A stretch of DNA of 64,000 nt from Candidatus Amphirhobacter sp. (GTDB lineage: Bacteria; Pseudomonadota; Gammaproteobacteria; Tethybacterales; Tethybacteraceae), in contig OZ244940.1 of assembly GCA_965222035.1 (NCBI GenBank), positions 899,015 through 963,014 on the forward strand, in the 5' to 3' direction. The translations under genes and the position numbers were made by a program. How positions within the stretch are numbered: position 1 is the stretch's first letter; each line of letters opens with the position of its first letter. Shown here piece by piece: positions 17,331 through 25,988 of this stretch. The notes beneath the pieces were generated by a model, which searched no databases, was not told where the DNA came from, and worked only from the letters and a program-made list of their open reading frames with translations.

Positions 17331-18434
<1,104 letters not shown>

Positions 18435-18436
18435 CC

Positions 18437-19594
18437 ATGCGCATCGGCGTCGTCGGCCTGGGACATCGCGCCGCCATGGTGCTGCGCTTTCTCAAGCAGC
18501 CCCTGCCGGAGCTGGAGGTCATGGGCTACGTCGACCCGCAGCCCTGCGGGCTGGAGCCGCTGCGTGAGAAAGTCAAGGTCGGCGAAGCCTACCCGGACAT
18601 CCAGGCCCTGCTCGCGGCCAAGCCGGAGTTCCTGTTCATCGCCTCGCCGAACCATCTGCATCTCGAGCACATCCGCGCCGGCCTGGAAGCGGGCATGCGC
18701 ATGTTCGTCGAGAAGCCGATCGTGATCACGCCCGAGCAGACCTTCGAGCTGGCCGAGCTGCTCGCCAAGCACGGCCCGGCGCAGGTCCAGGTCGGCCTGG
18801 TGCTGCGCTACGCGCGCCACATGCGCGATCTGCGCGCGAGCATGCAAGAGGGCCTGCTGGGCGACATCATCTCGATGGAGGCCAACGAGCACATCGCGCC
18901 CTATCACGGCGCCTTCTTCATGCGCGACTGGCGACGCCTGGCGAAGTACTCCGGCGGCTTCATGCTGGAGAAGTGCTGCCACGACCTCGACATCTACAAC
19001 ATGATCGCCAACAGCCGCCCCCTGCGGGTCGCGAGCTTCGGCGGCCGCGGCGCGTTCACGCCCGCGAACGCGCCGGGCGCTGACGAGGACAGCGCGGTCT
19101 ATCAGGAAAAGCGCTCGTTCTGGGAAGCAGCTCCCGATCCGTTCAGAAGCGACGGCGACATCGTCGACAACCAAGTTGCGATCATCGAGTACGCCAATGG
19201 CGCGCGGCTAGCCTTCCACACCAACACCAACGTCCCCGACGAGCACCGCCGCTTCTGCGTCGTCGGCACCAAGGGCATGGCCGAGGGCGATTTTGGACGG
19301 GGATTTCTCAAGATCACCGACGCACGCACGCGCCAGACCATCCACGACCATGACTACACCGGCTACCAGGGCGACGCCTGCCACTACGGCGCCGACGAGT
19401 TGATGGCCCAGGACTTGGCAGACTACCTGCGCGGCACCAGCGAAGAGCTGCCGGTCGCCGCGGTGGATTGCCTGGAGGCCGGCCTGGCCGCCATGGCGAT
19501 CGACCAGGCCCGCGCCAGCGGTCAAGTCGTCAGCCTGCAGGAGTGGTGGGACCGGATGGATGCCTGTAAATTGCGAGCGGATGGATCCCGCTAA
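18437..19594 (+). CDS. Gfo/Idh/MocA-family oxidoreductase
   Basis: MRIGVVGLGHRA N-terminal NAD(P)-binding; track start 18371 overlaps the ATPase gene. Confidence 0.8.
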   Translation: MRIGVVGLGHRAAMVLRFLKQPLPELEVMGYVDPQPCGLEPLREKVKVGEAYPDIQALLAAKPEFLFIASPNHLHLEHIRAGLEAGMRMFVEKPIVITPEQTFELAELLAKHGPAQVQVGLVLRYARHMRDLRASMQEGLLGDIISMEANEHIAPYHGAFFMRDWRRLAKYSGGFMLEKCCHDLDIYNMIANSRPLRVASFGGRGAFTPANAPGADEDSAVYQEKRSFWEAAPDPFRSDGDIVDNQVAIIEYANGARLAFHTNTNVPDEHRRFCVVGTKGMAEGDFGRGFLKITDARTRQTIHDHDYTGYQGDACHYGADELMAQDLADYLRGTSEELPVAAVDCLEAGLAAMAIDQARASGQVVSLQEWWDRMDACKLRADGSR

Positions 19595-19631
19595 CTTGTT
19601 TTCCGGCAATTAGGGGCTATAATACCCATAA
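19512..19631. repeat. about 120-bp segment (oxidoreductase 3' end + promoter) duplicated at 20788-20909
   Basis: About 90-95% identity between the two copies including the last about 75 nt of the oxidoreductase CDS. Confidence 0.8.
19596..19623 (+). promoter_or_regulatory. sigma70-like promoter TTGTTT-N16-TATAAT, -10 ends 8 nt before ATG (leaderless mRNA)
   Basis: Hexamers read directly; no room for SD; conserved in second cassette. Confidence 0.5.
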
Positions 19632-20093
19632 ATGCCCGGGCACAACGCCATCGCCATCGCGAACATCTATGTCAAGCTAGCGCAGGCTAGAAAGCACTAT
19701 CTGTCCAAGCTTCCCCTGATGAAGTTCATCTACTTCGCCCATGGCTGGACTTTGGGCTACACGGGAGAACCGCTCATTCGCGAGGACATCCTCGTCTGGA
19801 AATTCGGCCCGGCCATTCTCGAGGTCTATCGCGCCTTCGCGGAGAAAGGTTTTTACATCCAAACTCCGGCGCTGGACAAGAAAGGTGAGGAAATCACCTG
19901 CGAGCAGGATTTGAGCACCCAGGAGCAGGACATCATCATTAAGGTGTTCGATGATTACTCAACTTCAGACGCTATGGAGCTGGTTGGGATTACGCATGCC
20001 AAAGGCGCACCTTGGTCTACCAGCAAACAGAGAGGAGAATCTGTAATTTCTAACGAGATAATCAGGGATTATTACAAGGAGCGGTTGATTTAA
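19632..20093 (+). CDS. Panacea-domain (DUF4065, GepA/SocA-like) putative antitoxin, cassette 1
   Basis: LMKFIYFAHGWTLGYTGEPLIREDILVWKFGPAILEVYRAF matches DUF4065 core; about 50% GC. Confidence 0.7.
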   Translation: MPGHNAIAIANIYVKLAQARKHYLSKLPLMKFIYFAHGWTLGYTGEPLIREDILVWKFGPAILEVYRAFAEKGFYIQTPALDKKGEEITCEQDLSTQEQDIIIKVFDDYSTSDAMELVGITHAKGAPWSTSKQRGESVISNEIIRDYYKERLI

Positions 20094-20094
20094 C

Positions 20095-20538
20095 ATGTTC
20101 GATGAACAATTTAAGGGCCGGGAAGAAGAGTCCGAAAAGGCTCTTAGCCCGCAGGATTTGCTGCGCGAGTATCTTGCAGAGGAACTCTCCGAAGAGGCGG
20201 TGAAAATCAGAAAGGGACGCGAAAGCAAGGAGTTCATTTTCTCCTTGAGCGCCCGGATTATCCTAATCATCGCGGTGCTTGTCGTTGTCGGTATCCTATA
20301 TTGGCAACTATTCCAGGTCGCTGGTGCCTGGTCCGAACTCCGAAACGTCCACCCAGCAGTCCTGACAGCCTTTGTGTCGGGCATCATCATCAGTACCACA
20401 GCGCTGCTGGGCTTCTTGATCGCTGGAGTTTTCCGCAACGCTGACAAGGACAAGCCTGAGCATCCCATGCAGAACCTTCTCAGCAATCCGGGAATAGCCA
20501 GGATCTTCAACCTCAGCGTGCAAGCGCCTCTCAATTAG
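20095..20538 (+). CDS. small membrane protein (acidic N-terminal region + two C-terminal TM helices), putative PanT-like toxin partner, cassette 1
   Basis: ATG 1 nt after upstream stop; TM segments ILIIAVLVVVGILYW and VLTAFVSGIIISTTALLGFLIAGVF. Confidence 0.55.
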   Translation: MFDEQFKGREEESEKALSPQDLLREYLAEELSEEAVKIRKGRESKEFIFSLSARIILIIAVLVVVGILYWQLFQVAGAWSELRNVHPAVLTAFVSGIIISTTALLGFLIAGVFRNADKDKPEHPMQNLLSNPGIARIFNLSVQAPLN

Positions 20539-20595
20539 GCTAACGAGTAAGGCGCCTTAGCTGCCGCCTCGAGAATTAACATCGCCAGGACTGAT

Positions 20596-20769
20596 AGTTC
20601 ATTGTCCTGCCAGGACACTGACGAGGGTGATCTGGACCTCGCACTAGAGGAATAAATCAAGCAGCTGGAGCGGGAGGCCGACCGCCAGGAGTTCTTCCTC
20701 TACGTACTCCTCGGCTTCATGCTGGCCTGCGGCTGCGGCCTCTTCTTCGACGACTACCCACGCCGCTAA
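20596..20769 (+). pseudogene. decayed copy of the 56-aa TM peptide gene of cassette 2 (lost ATG, in-frame TAA at 20653)
   Basis: About 90% nucleotide identity to 21861-22031 but start codon mutated and premature stop. Confidence 0.4.
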
Positions 20770-20787
20770 GCGGCTGGCGGCCAAGCC

Positions 20788-20909
20788 GCGCCAGCGGCCA
20801 GGTCGTCAGCCTGCAGGAGTGGTGGGACCGGCTGGATGCCTGCAAATTGAGAGGCGGCTAAATCCCGCCATACTTGTTTTTCGGCAATTTAGGGCTATAA
20901 TAACCACAA
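20788..20909. repeat. duplicate of oxidoreductase 3' end + promoter (copy 2)
   Basis: See 19512-19631. Confidence 0.8.
20874..20901 (+). promoter_or_regulatory. sigma70-like promoter TTGTTT-N16-TATAAT, leaderless (8 nt to ATG)
   Basis: Conserved copy of 19596-19623. Confidence 0.5.
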
Positions 20910-21356
20910 ATGCCCGGTCACAAAGCCATCGCCATCGCGAACCTCTATGTTCAGCGTGCGCTAGACAACGGCCATGACTTGACCATCATGCCGCTGATGA
21001 AGTACATCTACTTCGCTCATGGCTGGACCCTGGGCTATACAGGCCAGCCGCTCATCCAGGAGGATATCATCTCTTGGAGGCTGGGTCCGGCAATCCCGGA
21101 GGTATACGACGCCTTCAAAGAAAAAGGCTTCATCATCGGCAGCCAGGTCGAGGGCGAGGAGTTCAACTGCGAACTCACCGACGAAGAGAAAAGAATCGTC
21201 TTCGGCGTGTTCGATGATTACTCACGCTTCAAGCCATGGACTCTCTCTAAAATCACCCATGCAAGGGAAACACCGTGGTATAAATATCGGCGGAAGAGAG
21301 GGTCTGTGATACCCAATGATGTGATTGAGCAATATTACAAGGAACGCAAGCAATAG
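20910..21356 (+). CDS. Panacea-domain (DUF4065) putative antitoxin, cassette 2
   Basis: Paralog of 19632-20093 (about 60% aa identity): LMKYIYFAHGWTLGYTGQPLIQEDIISWRLGPAIPEVYDAF. Confidence 0.7.
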   Translation: MPGHKAIAIANLYVQRALDNGHDLTIMPLMKYIYFAHGWTLGYTGQPLIQEDIISWRLGPAIPEVYDAFKEKGFIIGSQVEGEEFNCELTDEEKRIVFGVFDDYSRFKPWTLSKITHARETPWYKYRRKRGSVIPNDVIEQYYKERKQ

Positions 21357-21357
21357 C

Positions 21358-21813
21358 ATGGCCAAACAGCCTTCATTTTCCGGCAAGGAAACCGACGAGC
21401 AAGCCGGCAAGGAAAGTCTGGACATCCGCTCCTTTGTGTATGCTTACCTTGAGTCTCAATCATCCGAAGAGGCTGAGAAGATACGGAAAGGGCAAGAGCG
21501 CAAGGAGTTCATTTTCTCCCTGAGCGTCCGGTCCGCTGCCGCCGGTACGGCGCTTGCAGCTGTCTTGTTCCTGTATCTCCAGCTATACCGGATCATTGGT
21601 GACTGGTCCTCGCTTCAAGAGGGACACCCAGCAGTCCTGACAGCCTTGGTGTCGGGCATCATCATCAGCACCACAGCGCTGCTAGGCTTCCTAATCACTA
21701 GCACTTTTCGCAACGCTGATAAGGACAAGCCTGTGCATCCCATGCAGAACTTTCTCAGCAATCCTAACGTGAGTAGGATTTTCAACCTCAGCGTGCAGGC
21801 GCCGCTCGAATAA
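21358..21813 (+). CDS. small membrane protein (acidic N-terminus + 2 TM), putative toxin partner, cassette 2
   Basis: ATG 1 nt after stop of upstream gene; C-terminal half about 90% identical at nt level to cassette 1, N-terminal half diverged. Confidence 0.55.
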   Translation: MAKQPSFSGKETDEQAGKESLDIRSFVYAYLESQSSEEAEKIRKGQERKEFIFSLSVRSAAAGTALAAVLFLYLQLYRIIGDWSSLQEGHPAVLTALVSGIIISTTALLGFLITSTFRNADKDKPVHPMQNFLSNPNVSRIFNLSVQAPLE

Positions 21814-21860
21814 GCTAACGAGCGGGCGATTTAACTGCCGCTTCAAGAATAAATATAGTC

Positions 21861-22031
21861 ATGATTGACAAATCATTGCCCTACCAGGAAATCGAAGAAG
21901 ATGACCTGGACCTCGAACTAGAGGAAGAAATCAAGCAAATGGAGCGGGAGGCCGACCGCCAGGAGTTCTTCCTCTACGTACTCCTCGGCTTCATGCTGGC
22001 CTGGGGCTGCGGCCTCTTTATGGACGACTAG
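21861..22031 (+). CDS. 56-aa peptide with acidic N-terminal half and single C-terminal TM helix (third cassette gene)
   Basis: MIDKSLPYQEIEEDDLDLELEEEIKQMEREADRQEFFLYVLLGFMLAWGCGLFMDD; below the ORF-track length cutoff; intact only in cassette 2. Confidence 0.4.
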   Translation: MIDKSLPYQEIEEDDLDLELEEEIKQMEREADRQEFFLYVLLGFMLAWGCGLFMDD

Positions 22032-22067
22032 CCTGCGCCGCTAGCAACTGGCGGCCAAGCGCGCGCG

Positions 22068-22532
22068 ATGGCCGACACTTTAACCCCGCAGCAACGCAGC
22101 CAGTTGATGGCGCGCATCCGCGGCAAGGACACCAAGATCGAGCTGCTCGTCCGCCGCGCGCTGCACGGCCTGAAGTTCCGCTATCAACTGCACGACCGCC
22201 GCTTGCCCGGTCGACCCGACATGGTCCTGCCCAAATACCGGGCGGTGATTTTCATCCACGGCTGCTTCTGGCACGGCCACGACTGCGCGTTGCATCGCCC
22301 GCCCTCTTCCAACAAACTATACTGGCGCGACAAGATCACGCGCAATCAGGAACGGGACGCCGCGGCGCTCAAGCAACTGCGCCGCGACGGCTGGCGCTGC
22401 CTGGTGATCTGGGAATGCGCCCTGCGCGGACCGCAGCGGCGCGATTTCGACCGCAGCATCGCCGCGATCGACAGCTGGCTGCGCGGCGACGCGCGCTCCA
22501 AGACCATCCGGGGCAAGACCCAGCGCAAATAA
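22068..22532 (+). CDS. vsr: very short patch repair endonuclease
   Basis: FIHGCFWHGH and WRCLVIWECAL; near full-length match to the Vsr family. Confidence 0.85.
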   Translation: MADTLTPQQRSQLMARIRGKDTKIELLVRRALHGLKFRYQLHDRRLPGRPDMVLPKYRAVIFIHGCFWHGHDCALHRPPSSNKLYWRDKITRNQERDAAALKQLRRDGWRCLVIWECALRGPQRRDFDRSIAAIDSWLRGDARSKTIRGKTQRK

Positions 22533-22544
22533 GCCGCCCGGCGC

Positions 22545-23003
22545 TCAGGCGTCGAGCTGCTTGAGCTTCTCGACCTTCGGGGCCGAGCGCCCGCCCTGGA
22601 ATTCATTGCGCAGGTAAATGTCAACCAGCATCTTCGCTACCGACGGGCCCGTGATCAGGGCGCCGAAGCTGATCACCTGCGCGTCGTTCGAAGCAATGGC
22701 GCGCTCGGCGGTGTACGGATCGGTCACGCAGACTGCCCGGACGCCGGCGACCTTGTTCGCCGCGATCGCCATGCCCGCGCCGGTCCCGCAGATCAGGATG
22801 CCGCGCTCGAACTCGCCCGCGGCCAGCCGCCGCGCCAGCTCAGCGCCGATGTCCGGATAATCGACCGGCTGCTCATCGTCCACACCGATATCACTGATCT
22901 CGGCGCCGTTCGCGCGCAGATGCGCGGCCAGCTCATTCTTGAGCGCCAGGCCGAGATGGTCGCAGCCCAGTCCCAGCTTGGTGGCTAGATACGGCGCGCT
23001 CAT
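22545..23003 (-). CDS. rpiB: ribose-5-phosphate isomerase B (RpiB/LacAB family)
   Basis: GCDHLG, ILICGTGAGMAIAANK conserved RpiB motifs. Confidence 0.8.
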   Translation of the reverse strand: MSAPYLATKLGLGCDHLGLALKNELAAHLRANGAEISDIGVDDEQPVDYPDIGAELARRLAAGEFERGILICGTGAGMAIAANKVAGVRAVCVTDPYTAERAIASNDAQVISFGALITGPSVAKMLVDIYLRNEFQGGRSAPKVEKLKQLDA

Positions 23004-23947
23004 GCCGACAACCGGGGCAATTCCTTGCTGCGCGCCAAGGTGTCCTCAAAGGAGATGATGCCAGCATCCGAGCCCAGGCCCGTCGCCACCAAAGCCGCGG
23101 CCGCCTGGGCGAAGTCCAGGGCCTGCTCAGGATTCATCTGGCGATGCAGCGCCGTGATGAAGCCGGCGTCGAAGGCATCGCCGCAGCCGGTGGTGTCGGT
23201 CACATCGATGGCGTAGGCGGGCGCCTGCAGGCGCGTGCCGTCGGCATGGGCGTAGTACGCGCCCTCGGGCCCGAGGGTGAAGACGCAGCAGGTCGCGCCC
23301 TTGTCCAGATAGAAGGCCGCGCAGTCCGCTGCGTCCTGCTGGTCGGACATGTCGCGCGCCTCTTCGATCGAGGGCATGAAATAATCAATGTGAGGCAGCA
23401 GCGGCTCGACCAGGGCAATCGTCTCCGCGGTCGCCGCGATCAAATCGAAGGTCACGATACGGTCCCGCTTCTTGGCCTCGGCCAGCAGCTTGGCGCTGCG
23501 CTCGCCATCGAGCTTCTGCAGCAGCCCGGTCCCGCCCAGATGGATGATCGGCGCGGCCAGCACCTGGTCGTACATGGCGGCCTCGACATCGAAATGGTCG
23601 GAGGCCCCGCGCAGATGCAAGGCGGGCCGGTCGCCGTTCGGCCGGACATTGAGAATGGTCGCGGAAGTGGGCACGCCCGGCAGGCGCTGCATGGCCGCAG
23701 TGTCCACGCCGAAGCTCTTGAGAGTCGCGATGACGAAATCGGCCTTCTCATCATCGCCGACCGCGCCGACCGCCAGCGTCTTGAGGCCGAGCTTGGCGCA
23801 GTCGACCACCGTCCCGCCTGCGGTACCCGCCACCGTCAGGCGAATCTCATCGATGAATTCGACATTGCCCTTGTCCGGAATGCGCTCGACTGGCCGCCCC
23901 AGCACATCCAGGATGTACAGGCCTATCACCGCTACGTCATGATCCAT
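23000..23947 (-). CDS. PfkB-family carbohydrate kinase
   Basis: DTTGCGDAF PfkB signature 2; ATGA-coupled to rpiB. Confidence 0.8.
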   Translation of the reverse strand: MDHDVAVIGLYILDVLGRPVERIPDKGNVEFIDEIRLTVAGTAGGTVVDCAKLGLKTLAVGAVGDDEKADFVIATLKSFGVDTAAMQRLPGVPTSATILNVRPNGDRPALHLRGASDHFDVEAAMYDQVLAAPIIHLGGTGLLQKLDGERSAKLLAEAKKRDRIVTFDLIAATAETIALVEPLLPHIDYFMPSIEEARDMSDQQDAADCAAFYLDKGATCCVFTLGPEGAYYAHADGTRLQAPAYAIDVTDTTGCGDAFDAGFITALHRQMNPEQALDFAQAAAALVATGLGSDAGIISFEDTLARSKELPRLSA

Positions 23948-24000
23948 GGCTGCTGCTCCTCCTTCCTAGATAGGATTCTAACCTTGCCCGCCAAGCGGGG

Positions 24001-24088
24001 CGGAGAGAGAGGGATTCGAACCCTCGATACGGGAAAACCGTATACACGCTTTCCAAGCGTGCGCCTTCGACCGCTCGGCCACCTCTCC
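24001..24088 (-). tRNA. tRNA-Ser (anticodon GGA), 88 nt with long variable arm
   Basis: Reverse complement GGAGAGGTGGCCGAGCGGT...anticodon loop TTGGAAA...GGTTCGAATCC...; cloverleaf built by hand. Confidence 0.8.
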
Positions 24089-24095
24089 GTGTATC

Positions 24096-25988
24096 TTACT
24101 TGCCCTTGGTGTGGATCTCGACCAGCGCCTCATTGGGCTTGACCGCGTCGCCGACGCTGACCAGGATCGCGACCACCGTCCCCGCGATCGGCGCTTCGAT
24201 CTCGTTCTCCATCTTCATGGCCTCGATCACCAGGACCGCCTCGCCCTGCTTGACCTCCTGCCCTTCCTTGACCAGCACCTGGACCACGTTGCCCGGCATC
24301 GGCGTCGAGACGTGCCCGGGCTTGCTCGCCCGCGGCAGGCCGTCCCGGCCGGCGCCCGGCTTGGCCGCCGCATCGGCGTCGACCGGCGCCAGATCCAGGG
24401 TCTCGAGCAGCACCTCCTCGGTAACGCCATCGACGGTGAAGAACATCGGGCGCTGCTCGGCCGATTTCATGCCCGCGCCGGTCAGCTTGATGTGGAAGGT
24501 CTCGCCGTGCAGCGTTACGTTGAACTCGCTCGGCGCCTGGCCTGCTGAGTCGGGACTGGGTGCGGGTGCGCCCGGCGCCGGGGCCGGCAGCAGTTCCTCG
24601 GGCTTGAGCTGCCCGGCGGCGCGCTCCTGCAGATAAGCCCGGGCGATCTCCGGGAACATCGCATAGGTCAGGATGTCCTCGTCGCTGGTCGCGAGCGAGC
24701 CGATCTCGCCGCGGATCTTGTCGAGCTCGCTGCCGCCGAGCAGGTCGGCGGGCCGGCAGGTGATCACCTCCTCGTCTCCAATCGCCTCTTGGCGGACCTC
24801 TTCGTTAACCGAGCCCGGCGTCGCGCCGTACAGGCCGCGCAGCAGGTTCTTGATCTCCTTGGTCACCGTCTGATAGCGCTTGCCGCCGCCCACCACATTG
24901 AAGACCGCCTGGGTCCCGACGATCTGCGAGGTCGGCGTGACCAGCGGCGGATAGCCCAAATCGGCGCGCACCCGGGGGATTTCCTCCAAGACCTCGTCGA
25001 TCTTGTCGAGCGCGCCCTGCTCCTTGAGCTGGTTGGTCAGGTTGGAGATCATCCCGCCGGGGACGTGGTGCTTGAGCACTCGCGGATCGACGTTGGTGAA
25101 ACTGCTCTCGAACTGCCAGTATTTGCGGCGCACCACCCGGAAGTAGTCCGCGATGCTCTCGAGCTGGGCCGGGTCCAGGCCGGGATCGCGGGGCGTGCCC
25201 TGCAGCGCGGCGCACATGGTCTCGGTCGCCGGATGCGAAGCGCCCTCGGCGAACGGCGAGATCGCGGTGTCGATGATGTCGGCGCCGGCCTCGGCGGCGC
25301 GCAGCATGCACATGCCGGCCAGGCCCGAAGTGTAGTGGCTGTGTACCGCCACCGGCAGGCCGACCTCCGCTTTCAGCCGCGATACCAGCTCAAAGCAGGC
25401 CGGCGGCGTCATGATGCCGGCCATGTCCTTGATGGCGACGCTGGCGCAGCCGGCGTCGGCGAAGCGCTTGGCGAGCTCGACAAAGCCCGTCAGGTCGTGC
25501 ACCGGGCTGGTGGTGTAGGAAATGGCCCCCTGGGCGTGCTTGCCCGCGTCCTTGATAGCTTGCAGGCAGACTTCCATGTTGCGGAAGTCGTTGAGAGCGT
25601 CAAAGACGCGAAAGACGTCGATGCCGTTGTCCGCGGCCTTGGCGACGAAGGAGCGTACGACATCGTCGGCGTAGTGGCGGTAGCCGAGCAGGTTCTGGCC
25701 CCGCAGCAGCATCTGCAGCCGGGTGTTCGGGAGTACCTGGCGCAATTTGCGCAGGCGTTCCCAGGGGTCCTCACGCAAAAAGCGCACGCAGGCGTCGAAG
25801 GTCGCGCCGCCCCAGGCTTCGAGGGACCAGAAGCCGACCTTGTCGAGTTTCTCGCAAATCGGCAGCATGTCGTCCAGGGACATGCGGGTCGCGATCAGCG
25901 ACTGGTGCCCGTCCCGCAAGACCAGCTCGGTGATCTTGAGGGGCTCGGCCGCCGCGGCCCCCTGCTTGCTCGCCTGCTTCTTTGCCAT
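24096..25988 (-). CDS. oadA: oxaloacetate decarboxylase alpha subunit / pyruvate carboxylase subunit B (carboxyltransferase + biotinyl domain)
   Basis: HMGL-like carboxyltransferase domain, C-terminal EAMKMEN biotin attachment motif; the ORF-track N-terminal 186 aa are an Arg/Pro-rich over-extension, true start MAKKQASK at 25988. Confidence 0.8.
   Translation of the reverse strand: MAKKQASKQGAAAAEPLKITELVLRDGHQSLIATRMSLDDMLPICEKLDKVGFWSLEAWGGATFDACVRFLREDPWERLRKLRQVLPNTRLQMLLRGQNLLGYRHYADDVVRSFVAKAADNGIDVFRVFDALNDFRNMEVCLQAIKDAGKHAQGAISYTTSPVHDLTGFVELAKRFADAGCASVAIKDMAGIMTPPACFELVSRLKAEVGLPVAVHSHYTSGLAGMCMLRAAEAGADIIDTAISPFAEGASHPATETMCAALQGTPRDPGLDPAQLESIADYFRVVRRKYWQFESSFTNVDPRVLKHHVPGGMISNLTNQLKEQGALDKIDEVLEEIPRVRADLGYPPLVTPTSQIVGTQAVFNVVGGGKRYQTVTKEIKNLLRGLYGATPGSVNEEVRQEAIGDEEVITCRPADLLGGSELDKIRGEIGSLATSDEDILTYAMFPEIARAYLQERAAGQLKPEELLPAPAPGAPAPSPDSAGQAPSEFNVTLHGETFHIKLTGAGMKSAEQRPMFFTVDGVTEEVLLETLDLAPVDADAAAKPGAGRDGLPRASKPGHVSTPMPGNVVQVLVKEGQEVKQGEAVLVIEAMKMENEIEAPIAGTVVAILVSVGDAVKPNEALVEIHTKGK

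Follow-up and report, generated by a model that had tools for sequence, protein, structure and literature searches.

The window analysed here, a 64,000-nucleotide stretch of Candidatus Amphirhobacter sp. contig OZ244940.1, contains two tandem cassettes in each of which a gene for a stand-alone Panacea-domain protein (PanA) is followed by a gene for a small protein with two transmembrane (TM) helices (the 2-TM protein). These are probably two specificity-diverged type II PanA-PanT membrane toxin-antitoxin (TA) pairs, which have been stacked and partly homogenised by recombination. In this favoured reading, the host is a genome-reduced symbiont of the AqS2/Tethybacterales group, and the modules would have entered its genome between vsr and a sugar-oxidoreductase gene. 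The new elements would be a very small PanT family and an unusual arrangement, both within a known kind of system, and the current understanding of toxin-antitoxin systems is not overturned.

The PanA-2TM module and its relation to known systems

Both PanA proteins match the PF13274 SocA_Panacea profile (61.7 and 69.2 bits vs the curated cut-off of 25.7) over profile positions 1-112/113. The Panacea assignment of the first-pass annotation, which had itself named a profile search as the check, is thereby confirmed for both genes. Against the NCBIfam SocA equivalog NF047745 the scores were 79 and 66.5 bits (E 3e-22 and 2e-18), the cut-off being 190. Having passed the Panacea profile but failed the equivalog cut-off, they are therefore stand-alone Panacea proteins and not SocA orthologs. 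The two proteins, termed type A in cassette 1 and type B in cassette 2, share 56% amino acid identity and are under purifying selection within each type, the ratio of nonsynonymous to synonymous substitution rates (dN/dS) being 0.1-0.4 overall and 0.13-0.23 among type A orthologs. Both PanAs also match PHROG 1281 (E 1e-30), and PanA was the source of the only PHROG matches in the cassettes. A PDB sequence search with PanA gave no match at E <= 0.01, and the nearest annotated PanAs were those of E. coli Stx prophages (34.5% identity).

The 2-TM gene starts 1 nt past the PanA stop codon in both units (TAA-C-ATG at 20095 and TAG-C-ATG at 21358), exactly as had been claimed. The protein consists of a charged N-terminal region of about 57 residues, two hydrophobic helices and a tail of about 35 residues. 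The earlier description of an acidic N-terminus with two TM helices holds for the helices but less clearly for the acidity, as the N-terminal ~57 residues, of which 20-24 are charged, are highly charged with both signs represented (D/E vs K/R 14:10 and 11:9). A helical hairpin is predicted by AlphaFold2 for the type B protein at residues ~60-118, with a predicted local distance difference test score (pLDDT) of 72-82. The C-terminal tail is very conserved across the family and purifying selection acts on TM2 and the tail, whereas the N-terminal half of the gene is fast-evolving, with dN up to 0.4 vs 0.01-0.02 in the flanking genes.

The 2-TM family is very small, as 9 and then 13 clusters (90% identity) were found among 5.8 billion, and an exhaustive profile search of 1.84 billion representatives gave six matches, one of them spurious. 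Searches from the 2-TM side with phmmer and hmmsearch reached nothing outside the PanA-linked family, and no relatives were found in viral contigs, plasmids or JGI metagenome contigs. Every member directly follows a Panacea gene. This includes the remote members P0011, P0012 and P0014, which lie in different genomic contexts and each overlap the upstream Panacea gene. The PanAs of the remote loci are also the nearest relatives of the window PanAs, with 43-47% identity vs 34% for the phage PanAs. The remote pairing and the closeness of these PanAs therefore mark the PanA-2TM pair as an inherited two-gene module, and the pairing noticed in the window is indeed the same in 8 related genomes and three unrelated contexts. 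No peptide gene was found in the remote PanA-2TM loci L094 and L096, and in L092 a convergent gene lies 40 nt after the 2-TM stop.

The close members were found on sponge-metagenome scaffolds with a shared gene order of sugar ABC transporter, oxidoreductase, cassette(s), vsr, rpiB and pfkB. In these 8 related genomes one or two cassettes occupy the same site, so that the variation in cassette number for which a search of relatives had been proposed does exist: the window, L001, L008, L009/L010 and L011 are double loci and L003, L005 and L095 are single. The nearest reference genome is that of the Amphimedon symbiont AqS2 (77% identity in the oxidoreductase), a member of the Tethybacterales / Ca. 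Beroebacter clade, whose sponge symbionts have reduced genomes (PMC12166358). In this outgroup the site is empty, the vsr start lying 17 nt past the oxidoreductase stop (L012 7146-7164), and a cassette was found at 0/80 orthologous oxidoreductase loci of other taxa. As a separate observation, the type A 2-TM gene of L011 (6001-6342, P0009) carries an in-frame deletion of ~34 codons which removes the loop and TM2, and is otherwise 97-100% identical to cassette 1 of the window. Either the putative toxin has been inactivated naturally or the contig, at 1.95x coverage, contains an error.

In the window, two units of 1278 and ~1275 nt lie head to tail across 19508-22060. The earlier claim of two tandem cassettes of ~1.27 kb is borne out by direct-repeat families which are spaced by 1274-1278 nt and tile the entire region. 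Each unit has the order oxidoreductase 3' tail, terminator-like hairpin, TATAAT, Panacea gene, 2-TM gene and an open reading frame (ORF) for a 56-residue peptide (Table 1). Both units together sit between the oxidoreductase gene and vsr, which are housekeeping genes of the sponge symbiont, and the G+C content is 0.66 in the flanks vs ~0.50 across 19600-22000. The left end of unit 1 is formed by the last ~87 nt of the oxidoreductase gene (19508-19594), and the tail copy at 20786-20861 is 93% identical to 19510-19577. The idea that each unit opens with a copy of the oxidoreductase tail is thus correct for unit 2, whereas in unit 1 it is the genuine 3' end of the gene. The internal tail copy is present in all double-cassette relatives, where it is decaying and has acquired indels. 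A third copy 3' of unit 2 was not found by global alignment, and the sequence passes straight into vsr, which begins 36 nt after the peptide gene on the same strand. A conserved neighbourhood of at most three genes is expected for PanA; each unit has three (PanA, 2-TM and peptide), and vsr is a native gene which AqS2 carries without the cassette.

Table 1. Features of the two cassettes and of the genes bordering them (window coordinates)
Feature	Position	Strand	Basis or remark
GFO/IDH/MocA oxidoreductase gene, native host gene	18437..19594	+	Pfam PF01408, PF22725, PF02894
Terminator-like hairpin AGCGG-N7-CCGCT and T-tract, overlapping the oxidoreductase stop codon	19576..19602	+	consensus scan
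Cassette 1 promoter-like element TTGTTT, 16 nt, TATAAT	19596..19623	+	read from sequence
PanA type A, 153 aa, stand-alone Panacea protein, putative antitoxin, cassette 1	19632..20093	+	PF13274 E 1.6e-16; PHROG 1281 E 4.5e-30
2-TM protein type A, 147 aa, putative PanT membrane toxin, cassette 1	20095..20538	+	two hydrophobic segments
Degraded peptide-gene copy, unit 1	20587..20757	+	CTG for ATG, in-frame TAA 20653-20655, stop now TAC
Internal pseudo-copy of oxidoreductase 3' tail, left end of unit 2	20786..20861	+	reads RASGQVVSLQEWWDRLDACKLRGG*
Cassette 2 hairpin GGCGG-N7-CCGCC, T-tract and TTGTTT-16-TATAAT promoter-like element	20853..20901	+	scan and sequence
PanA type B, 148 aa, stand-alone Panacea protein, putative antitoxin, cassette 2	20910..21356	+	PF13274 E 7.5e-19
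2-TM protein type B, 151 aa, putative PanT membrane toxin, cassette 2	21358..21813	+	family alignment: conserved start is ATG 21358
56-aa peptide gene, sole intact copy at the locus	21861..22031	+	56 codons in 7 loci; dN/dS 0.10-0.46
vsr (very-short-patch repair endonuclease), native host gene, right boundary	22068..22532	+	PF03852 E 2.3e-33, TIGR00632

Kurata et al. (2022, PNAS) have described PanA-PanT pairs and validated three TM toxins which are neutralised by PanA and which depolarise the membrane of E. coli or make it permeable (PMC8832971). The charged N-terminal region and 2-TM hairpin of the present proteins match the architecture described for these validated PanT toxins, as the first-pass annotation had suggested. 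For a Bartonella pair, Ernits et al. found that a stand-alone Panacea protein neutralises the toxin directly, touching its N-terminal region and pre-TM helix (PMC10440598); the region contacted in the Bartonella toxin is the part which has co-diverged with PanA here. By analogy, a free 2-TM protein would enter the inner membrane and depolarise or permeabilise it, and the stand-alone Panacea protein would neutralise it by binding to its cytoplasmic N-terminal region and the helix leading into TM1. PanA and the toxin N-terminus would then form the specificity half, diverged to saturation between the cassette types, and cross-talk between the pairs would therefore be unlikely.

As in the known PanA-PanT membrane toxins (T3 of E. 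coli STEC O31 and T12 of Bartonella apis/choladocola), the stand-alone Panacea (DUF4065) antitoxin comes first and the toxin gene lies within a few nucleotides of it. Unlike in the known PanT toxins, an extra conserved C-terminal tail of ~35 residues is present in the 2-TM family, which has no significant direct sequence similarity to them, and the modules here are stacked in tandem, include a third small gene and reside in a sponge-symbiont host. A profile-level likeness was found to phage PhiR47_1, where the annotated PanT lies 22 nt downstream of PanA, the spacing listed for the validated E. coli pair; from the annotation and this spacing we infer that it is the validated E. coli PanT. Alignment of the 2-TM profile to this protein by hhalign gave a probability of 70.8% (E 3.8e-5) over 73 columns, covering the whole hairpin, and 0/450 block shuffles reached the score of 35.5 (maximum 27.4). 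The features shared across the hairpin in this weak likeness are an EG-x-P loop and F[RK]xxxKD after TM2. A different phage PanA partner with two TM helices gave no hhalign match. The profile-profile test was a single-sequence one because the E. coli PanT occurs in phage and plasmid records as just three near-identical copies (94-100% identity; no plasmid match). Homology of the 2-TM family to T3 is likely but unproven, and a functional analogy to PanT toxins is well supported by architecture and gene linkage.

Two other systems share parts of this organisation. SocAB is a type VI toxin-antitoxin system of Caulobacter in which SocA is a Panacea-domain ClpXP adaptor and SocB an inhibitor of the DnaN sliding clamp. 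The antitoxin domain is the same and NF047745 is matched, but at 79 and 66 bits, far under the equivalog cut-off, and the partner is SocB-like there and a 2-TM protein here. The PF20712 CyanoTRADDas_TM family likewise has a short 2-TM hairpin after a helical region, but the hits to it were sub-threshold (3/10 2-TM family members; 16.3 bits vs the gathering value of 24.3; best E 5e-4). Unlike in the conflict-system effectors of that family, no TRADD-N or NTPase partner is present in the cassettes.

Mosaic divergence and cassette turnover

The two units differ very unevenly. In a global alignment, their identity was 90-92% in the oxidoreductase tail, 82-88% in the promoter and the first ~50 nt of PanA, 48-60% in the rest of PanA, 34-58% in the first ~180 nt of the TM gene, 80-94% in its 3' half and 92-98% in the 3' half of the peptide region. 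The mosaic with values of 55-75% and 90-95% which had been described earlier is thus roughly right in its pattern, whereas the true extremes are wider. The synonymous p-distance (pS) in the window follows the same course, with 0.79 in the rest of PanA, 0.56 in the N-terminal part of the TM gene and 0.27 in its C-terminal part (Fisher test on segments, p = 3e-6; 1e-6 in L001). Since the mosaic is seen at synonymous sites also, it is not due to protein constraint alone. Between types A and B, dS of PanA is saturated (at least 0.94, and above 1 in nearly every pair), whereas in the 2-TM gene it falls from 0.8-2.1 in the N-terminal part through 0.4-1.0 around TM1 to 0.23-0.58 in TM2 and the tail. 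The flanking genes differ among relatives by 3-6% (dS 0.1-0.25, dN 0.01-0.02).

Two deep cassette lineages, types A and B, were recognised. A type A cassette, with a PanA of 153 aa and a 2-TM protein of 147 aa, always takes the first place in double loci, and a dead copy of the peptide gene and the internal copy of the oxidoreductase tail always come after it. Type B (PanA 147-149 aa, 2-TM 143-151 aa) has three subtypes, occurs as the second or only cassette and always has the intact peptide gene next to it. The TM gene in the second cassette of L001 shares 88-90% identity with type A and 72-83% with subtype B1 over its 3' half, but 49-51% with type A and 66-68% with B1 over its 5' half. The flanking genes place the window (A+B1), L001 (A+B2) and L005 (B1) in one group and L003 (B1) and L008/L009 (A+B2) in another, so that cassette type does not track flanking-gene phylogeny. 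The pS heterogeneity, the incongruent segments and a cassette content that departs from the flanking groups together show recombination or conversion between cassettes and strains. The suggestion of cassette exchange or gene conversion is accordingly supported by segment-wise synonymous differences and incongruent segment trees.

A single old tandem duplication in situ, followed by uneven purifying selection and no recombination, is highly unlikely as the whole explanation. The least-diverged coding segments (PanA residues 1-50, and TM2 with the tail) are also the best conserved family-wide, as it would predict, and the duplicated unit contains native oxidoreductase sequence, from which it follows that the duplication or stacking happened at this locus. 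It is opposed by the segment pS contrast of 0.79 vs 0.27, by segment identities that are incongruent between genomes, and by close hosts which differ in their type B alleles and in cassette number. Moreover, despite a PanA dS above 1, an identity of 84-98% to the functional counterparts is kept in the non-coding internal tail and in the dead copy of the peptide gene. Simple duplication is possible as an origin, but conversion must then have acted besides. On the eight genomes compared, types A and B may have begun either as alleles which were stacked later or as an old duplication.

In the favoured reading of stacked and partly homogenised pairs, the effector half (TM2 and the cytoplasmic tail) and the promoter and peptide regions would have been homogenised by conversion or recombination among cassettes and strains, and homologous recombination between copies of the oxidoreductase tail would add or remove cassettes. 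As this crossover model predicts, single cassettes have promoter regions like those in front of the second, internal cassette of double loci, and the comparisons indicate that cassette A has been gained or lost by crossover in the repeated tail. The discrete units of ~1.28 kb, bounded by the same ~75-nt sequence, low in G+C and variable in number, could also suggest cassettes moved by a site-specific recombinase, as in an integron-like or tyrosine-recombinase island with the oxidoreductase tail as attachment site. This is extremely improbable, as no integrase or recombinase family was found in the Pfam lists for genes within 6 kb at 8 loci, no attC-like inverted repeat occurs at the unit ends, the right end has no third repeat copy, and the 2-TM family is absent from viral contigs and plasmids.

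The locus may be compared with stacked diverged TA systems and polymorphic toxin-immunity arrays, which likewise consist of head-to-tail modules with diverged specificity parts and conserved shared parts, and in which copy number is likewise altered by recombination between repeats. Unlike in those arrays, only two units are present, there are no orphan-immunity arrays and no secretion machinery, and the repeat through which units come and go is taken from an adjacent housekeeping gene, namely from its 3' end. The locus also displays the reshuffling of a putative TA system by stacking, loss, allele exchange and conversion, which would not be expected often in a genome-reduced, reportedly vertically transmitted sponge symbiont. 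If the favoured reading is true, a shared effector half joined to different recognition halves would provide a natural chimera system for Panacea-toxin recognition, and if the 2-TM proteins are toxic and are neutralised by their own PanA only, the locus would hold a natural pair of orthogonal Panacea modules.

As a side observation on base composition, the G+C content at third codon positions (GC3) is 0.67-0.78 in the least-diverged segments (PanA codons 1-50 and the TM 3' halves) and 0.93 in the peptide 3' half, against 0.61-0.64 in the most-diverged segments, the codon numbers being small. GC-biased gene conversion would give a higher GC3 in the least-diverged segments.

Control region and the 56-residue peptide gene

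The control regions of 13 units from 8 genomes were compared. Most of them retain a hairpin, its stem having changed in a compensatory way (AGCGG/CCGCT, GGCGG/CCGCC, GGGGC/GCCCC). In L009_2, L011_2, L008_2 and L003 the hairpin is weak (-3.0 to -4.6 kcal/mol), and L095 has a different sequence upstream of PanA. TATAAT ends 8 nt upstream of the PanA ATG, and this -10 box is conserved, as is its spacing from the start codon, across the units compared, while L095 and the remote locus L092 have a TGnTA(C/G)AAT box instead, 6-7 nt before the PanA ATG. The consensus scan missed the promoter-like element because its -35 matches 3/6 positions only. Given the position of TATAAT 8 nt before the ATG, the PanA mRNA is probably leaderless. 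We infer that each cassette forms a transcription unit of its own, insulated by the hairpin and T-tract, which would stop upstream transcription; PanA would be translated from a leaderless mRNA and the 2-TM gene would be coupled to it in translation across the 1-nt gap.

A PanA start codon 6-8 nt past a strong -10 was seen in every unit compared, as at 19618-19634 and 20896-20912 of the window, at ~5530-5552 of L095 and at ~3535-3558 of L092. As the short spacing is kept even with the different extended -10 promoter of the latter two loci, leaderless mRNAs may be conserved throughout this PanA subgroup; L094, with its GAGGAGG Shine-Dalgarno sequence, departs from this.

Downstream of the second cassette, no terminator-like site was found by consensus scan between 22031 and 22068, that is, between the peptide stop and vsr. 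The vsr gene is therefore probably read from the cassette promoters and co-transcribed with the cassettes. It was observed that vsr follows the oxidoreductase stop by 17 nt in AqS2 and that in the window a terminator-like hairpin now lies between the two genes; vsr expression has probably been captured by the cassette promoters.

The N-terminal half of the peptide encoded by the third gene is acidic (net charge -11, and -13 for the whole peptide), and a single TM helix lies at its C-terminal end, in agreement with the acidic TM peptide noticed earlier. It is exactly 56 codons long in 7 loci and in all 12 cluster members, with a mean identity of 95% and dN/dS of 0.10-0.46. The fixed length, the identity and the dN/dS together show that the ORF is a real gene. 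Its 95% amino acid identity contrasts with 56-72% for the adjoining type B PanA and 2-TM proteins, and no homolog was found outside the oxidoreductase-vsr locus. As had been noted, the gene is intact in cassette 2 only; the unit 1 copy (tblastn 76% over 55 aa) has a CTG start and an in-frame TAA. The internal copies of all double loci have lost the ATG, and their further lesions differ by genome: the in-frame TAA in the window, deletions that shift the frame in L009, Pro and Asp in place of TM-helix residues in L001 and a missing stop codon in L008. Since the internal copies have decayed differently and a single intact copy is kept, one peptide copy per locus suffices, and these observations argue for a single shared component of the locus rather than a per-cassette part.

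In the favoured reading of two PanA-PanT pairs, the peptide gene would be a lineage-specific third gene of which one copy per locus is needed, and the role favoured for its product is that of a partner or modulator, in the membrane, of the half which the two 2-TM proteins have in common. A stronger version, considered fairly unlikely, is a three-part system in which the peptide serves several 2-TM effectors as a shared membrane partner of their TM2-tail half, be it as gate, inhibitor or pore subunit, while each effector is restrained by its own co-diverged PanA and specificities are added by stacking through tail recombination. It is distinctly unlikely that the peptide is the real effector or an essential co-toxin, with regulation or immunity provided by PanA and the 2-TM protein together. 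The purifying selection and the excess of conservation over its neighbours would fit such an effector, as would the small tail-anchored TM architecture and the constant orientation 47 nt past the 2-TM gene. The architecture is also compatible with the small hydrophobic toxins of type I systems, but Rfam detected no antisense or other known RNA over 18000-25000, where it reported only tRNA and sub-threshold noise; a novel antisense RNA is still conceivable. Remote PanA-2TM modules moreover exist without the peptide (L092, L094, L096), double loci keep one intact copy while the internal copy has decayed in four different ways, and neither a recognisable Shine-Dalgarno sequence nor a promoter conserved in relatives serves the gene itself. 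A promoter-like match at 21831-21859 was rejected, as the start would fall inside the peptide ORF and the match is absent in L001 and L005. As a conserved orphan, the peptide may be an accessory component of PanAT systems, or its gene may be young.

Further observations concern the sequence of this gene and its spacer. GC3 is 0.56 in codons 1-27 (relatives 0.67-0.78) and 0.93 in codons 28-56 (0.87-0.93), the reference values being 0.84-0.89 for host genes and 0.61-0.78 for cassette genes. The break within 21861-22031 places the right edge of the low-GC DNA inside the peptide ORF, which is compatible with a chimeric gene formed at the insertion junction or with GC-biased conversion, and the gene may have arisen at the junction of foreign and host DNA. 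The 47-nt spacer from the 2-TM stop to the peptide ATG (21814-21860) is 98-100% identical in five lineages including L095, although the coding DNA beside it in L095 is just 61-91% identical; the spacer of L001 and L005 is another one (61-69% identity). The pattern points either to constraint on an RNA or translation-initiation element or to recent exchange of the segment. A 25-nt likeness of the peptide TM region to an internal oxidoreductase segment (repeat family D9) was judged to be a chance match.

Weight of the TA reading and neighbouring genes

Several points weigh against the reading as two membrane-toxin pairs. The toxicity, neutralisation and membrane action of the 2-TM family are assigned by analogy, the tie to a validated PanT is weak, resting on a single-sequence template at 71% probability, and the role proposed for the peptide is a guess. 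The 2-TM protein is not covered by any Pfam, PADLOC or PHROG family; NCBIfam has no curated family for it and a PADLOC scan gave nothing meaningful. Its AlphaFold2 model is of moderate confidence (mean pLDDT 61, predicted template modelling score 0.34). The dN/dS near 1 in the type B N-terminal region could reflect relaxed constraint instead of diversifying selection, the conversion signal is weak in L008 and L009 (p = 0.04-0.08), and the -35 element is poor, the transcription start being deduced from sequence.

The chief functional alternative is that no TA system is present, the 2-TM protein being a harmless membrane anchor or sensor with PanA as its partner, either a proteolytic adaptor as in SocAB or a signalling subunit, in a housekeeping or symbiosis role. 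We assign it a low probability. In its favour, the toxicity is only putative, ten predicted NetFlax pairs showed no toxicity in E. coli (PMC10440598), the locus lies on the chromosome and has no genes of mobile elements around it, and the very conserved C-terminal tail could mean a cellular partner. A housekeeping role is, on the other hand, difficult to reconcile with a family limited to one lineage and a few remote pairs, with the empty site in AqS2 and the foreign G+C (0.50 vs 0.66), and with an N-terminal half evolving far faster than the flanking genes. The variable cassette number, the possible internal deletion in the L011 toxin copy and a PanA score of 79 bits, far from the SocA cut-off of 190, also speak against it.

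Two minor observations were made on the neighbouring genes. No dcm-type methyltransferase is listed within ~6 kb of vsr in any related locus. The rpiB and pfkB genes (window 22545-23947, minus strand), which lie between vsr and a tRNA-Ser gene, are absent in AqS2, where the tRNA-Ser gene comes almost directly after vsr (L012 7150-7720); the neighbourhood has therefore changed beyond the cassette insertion.

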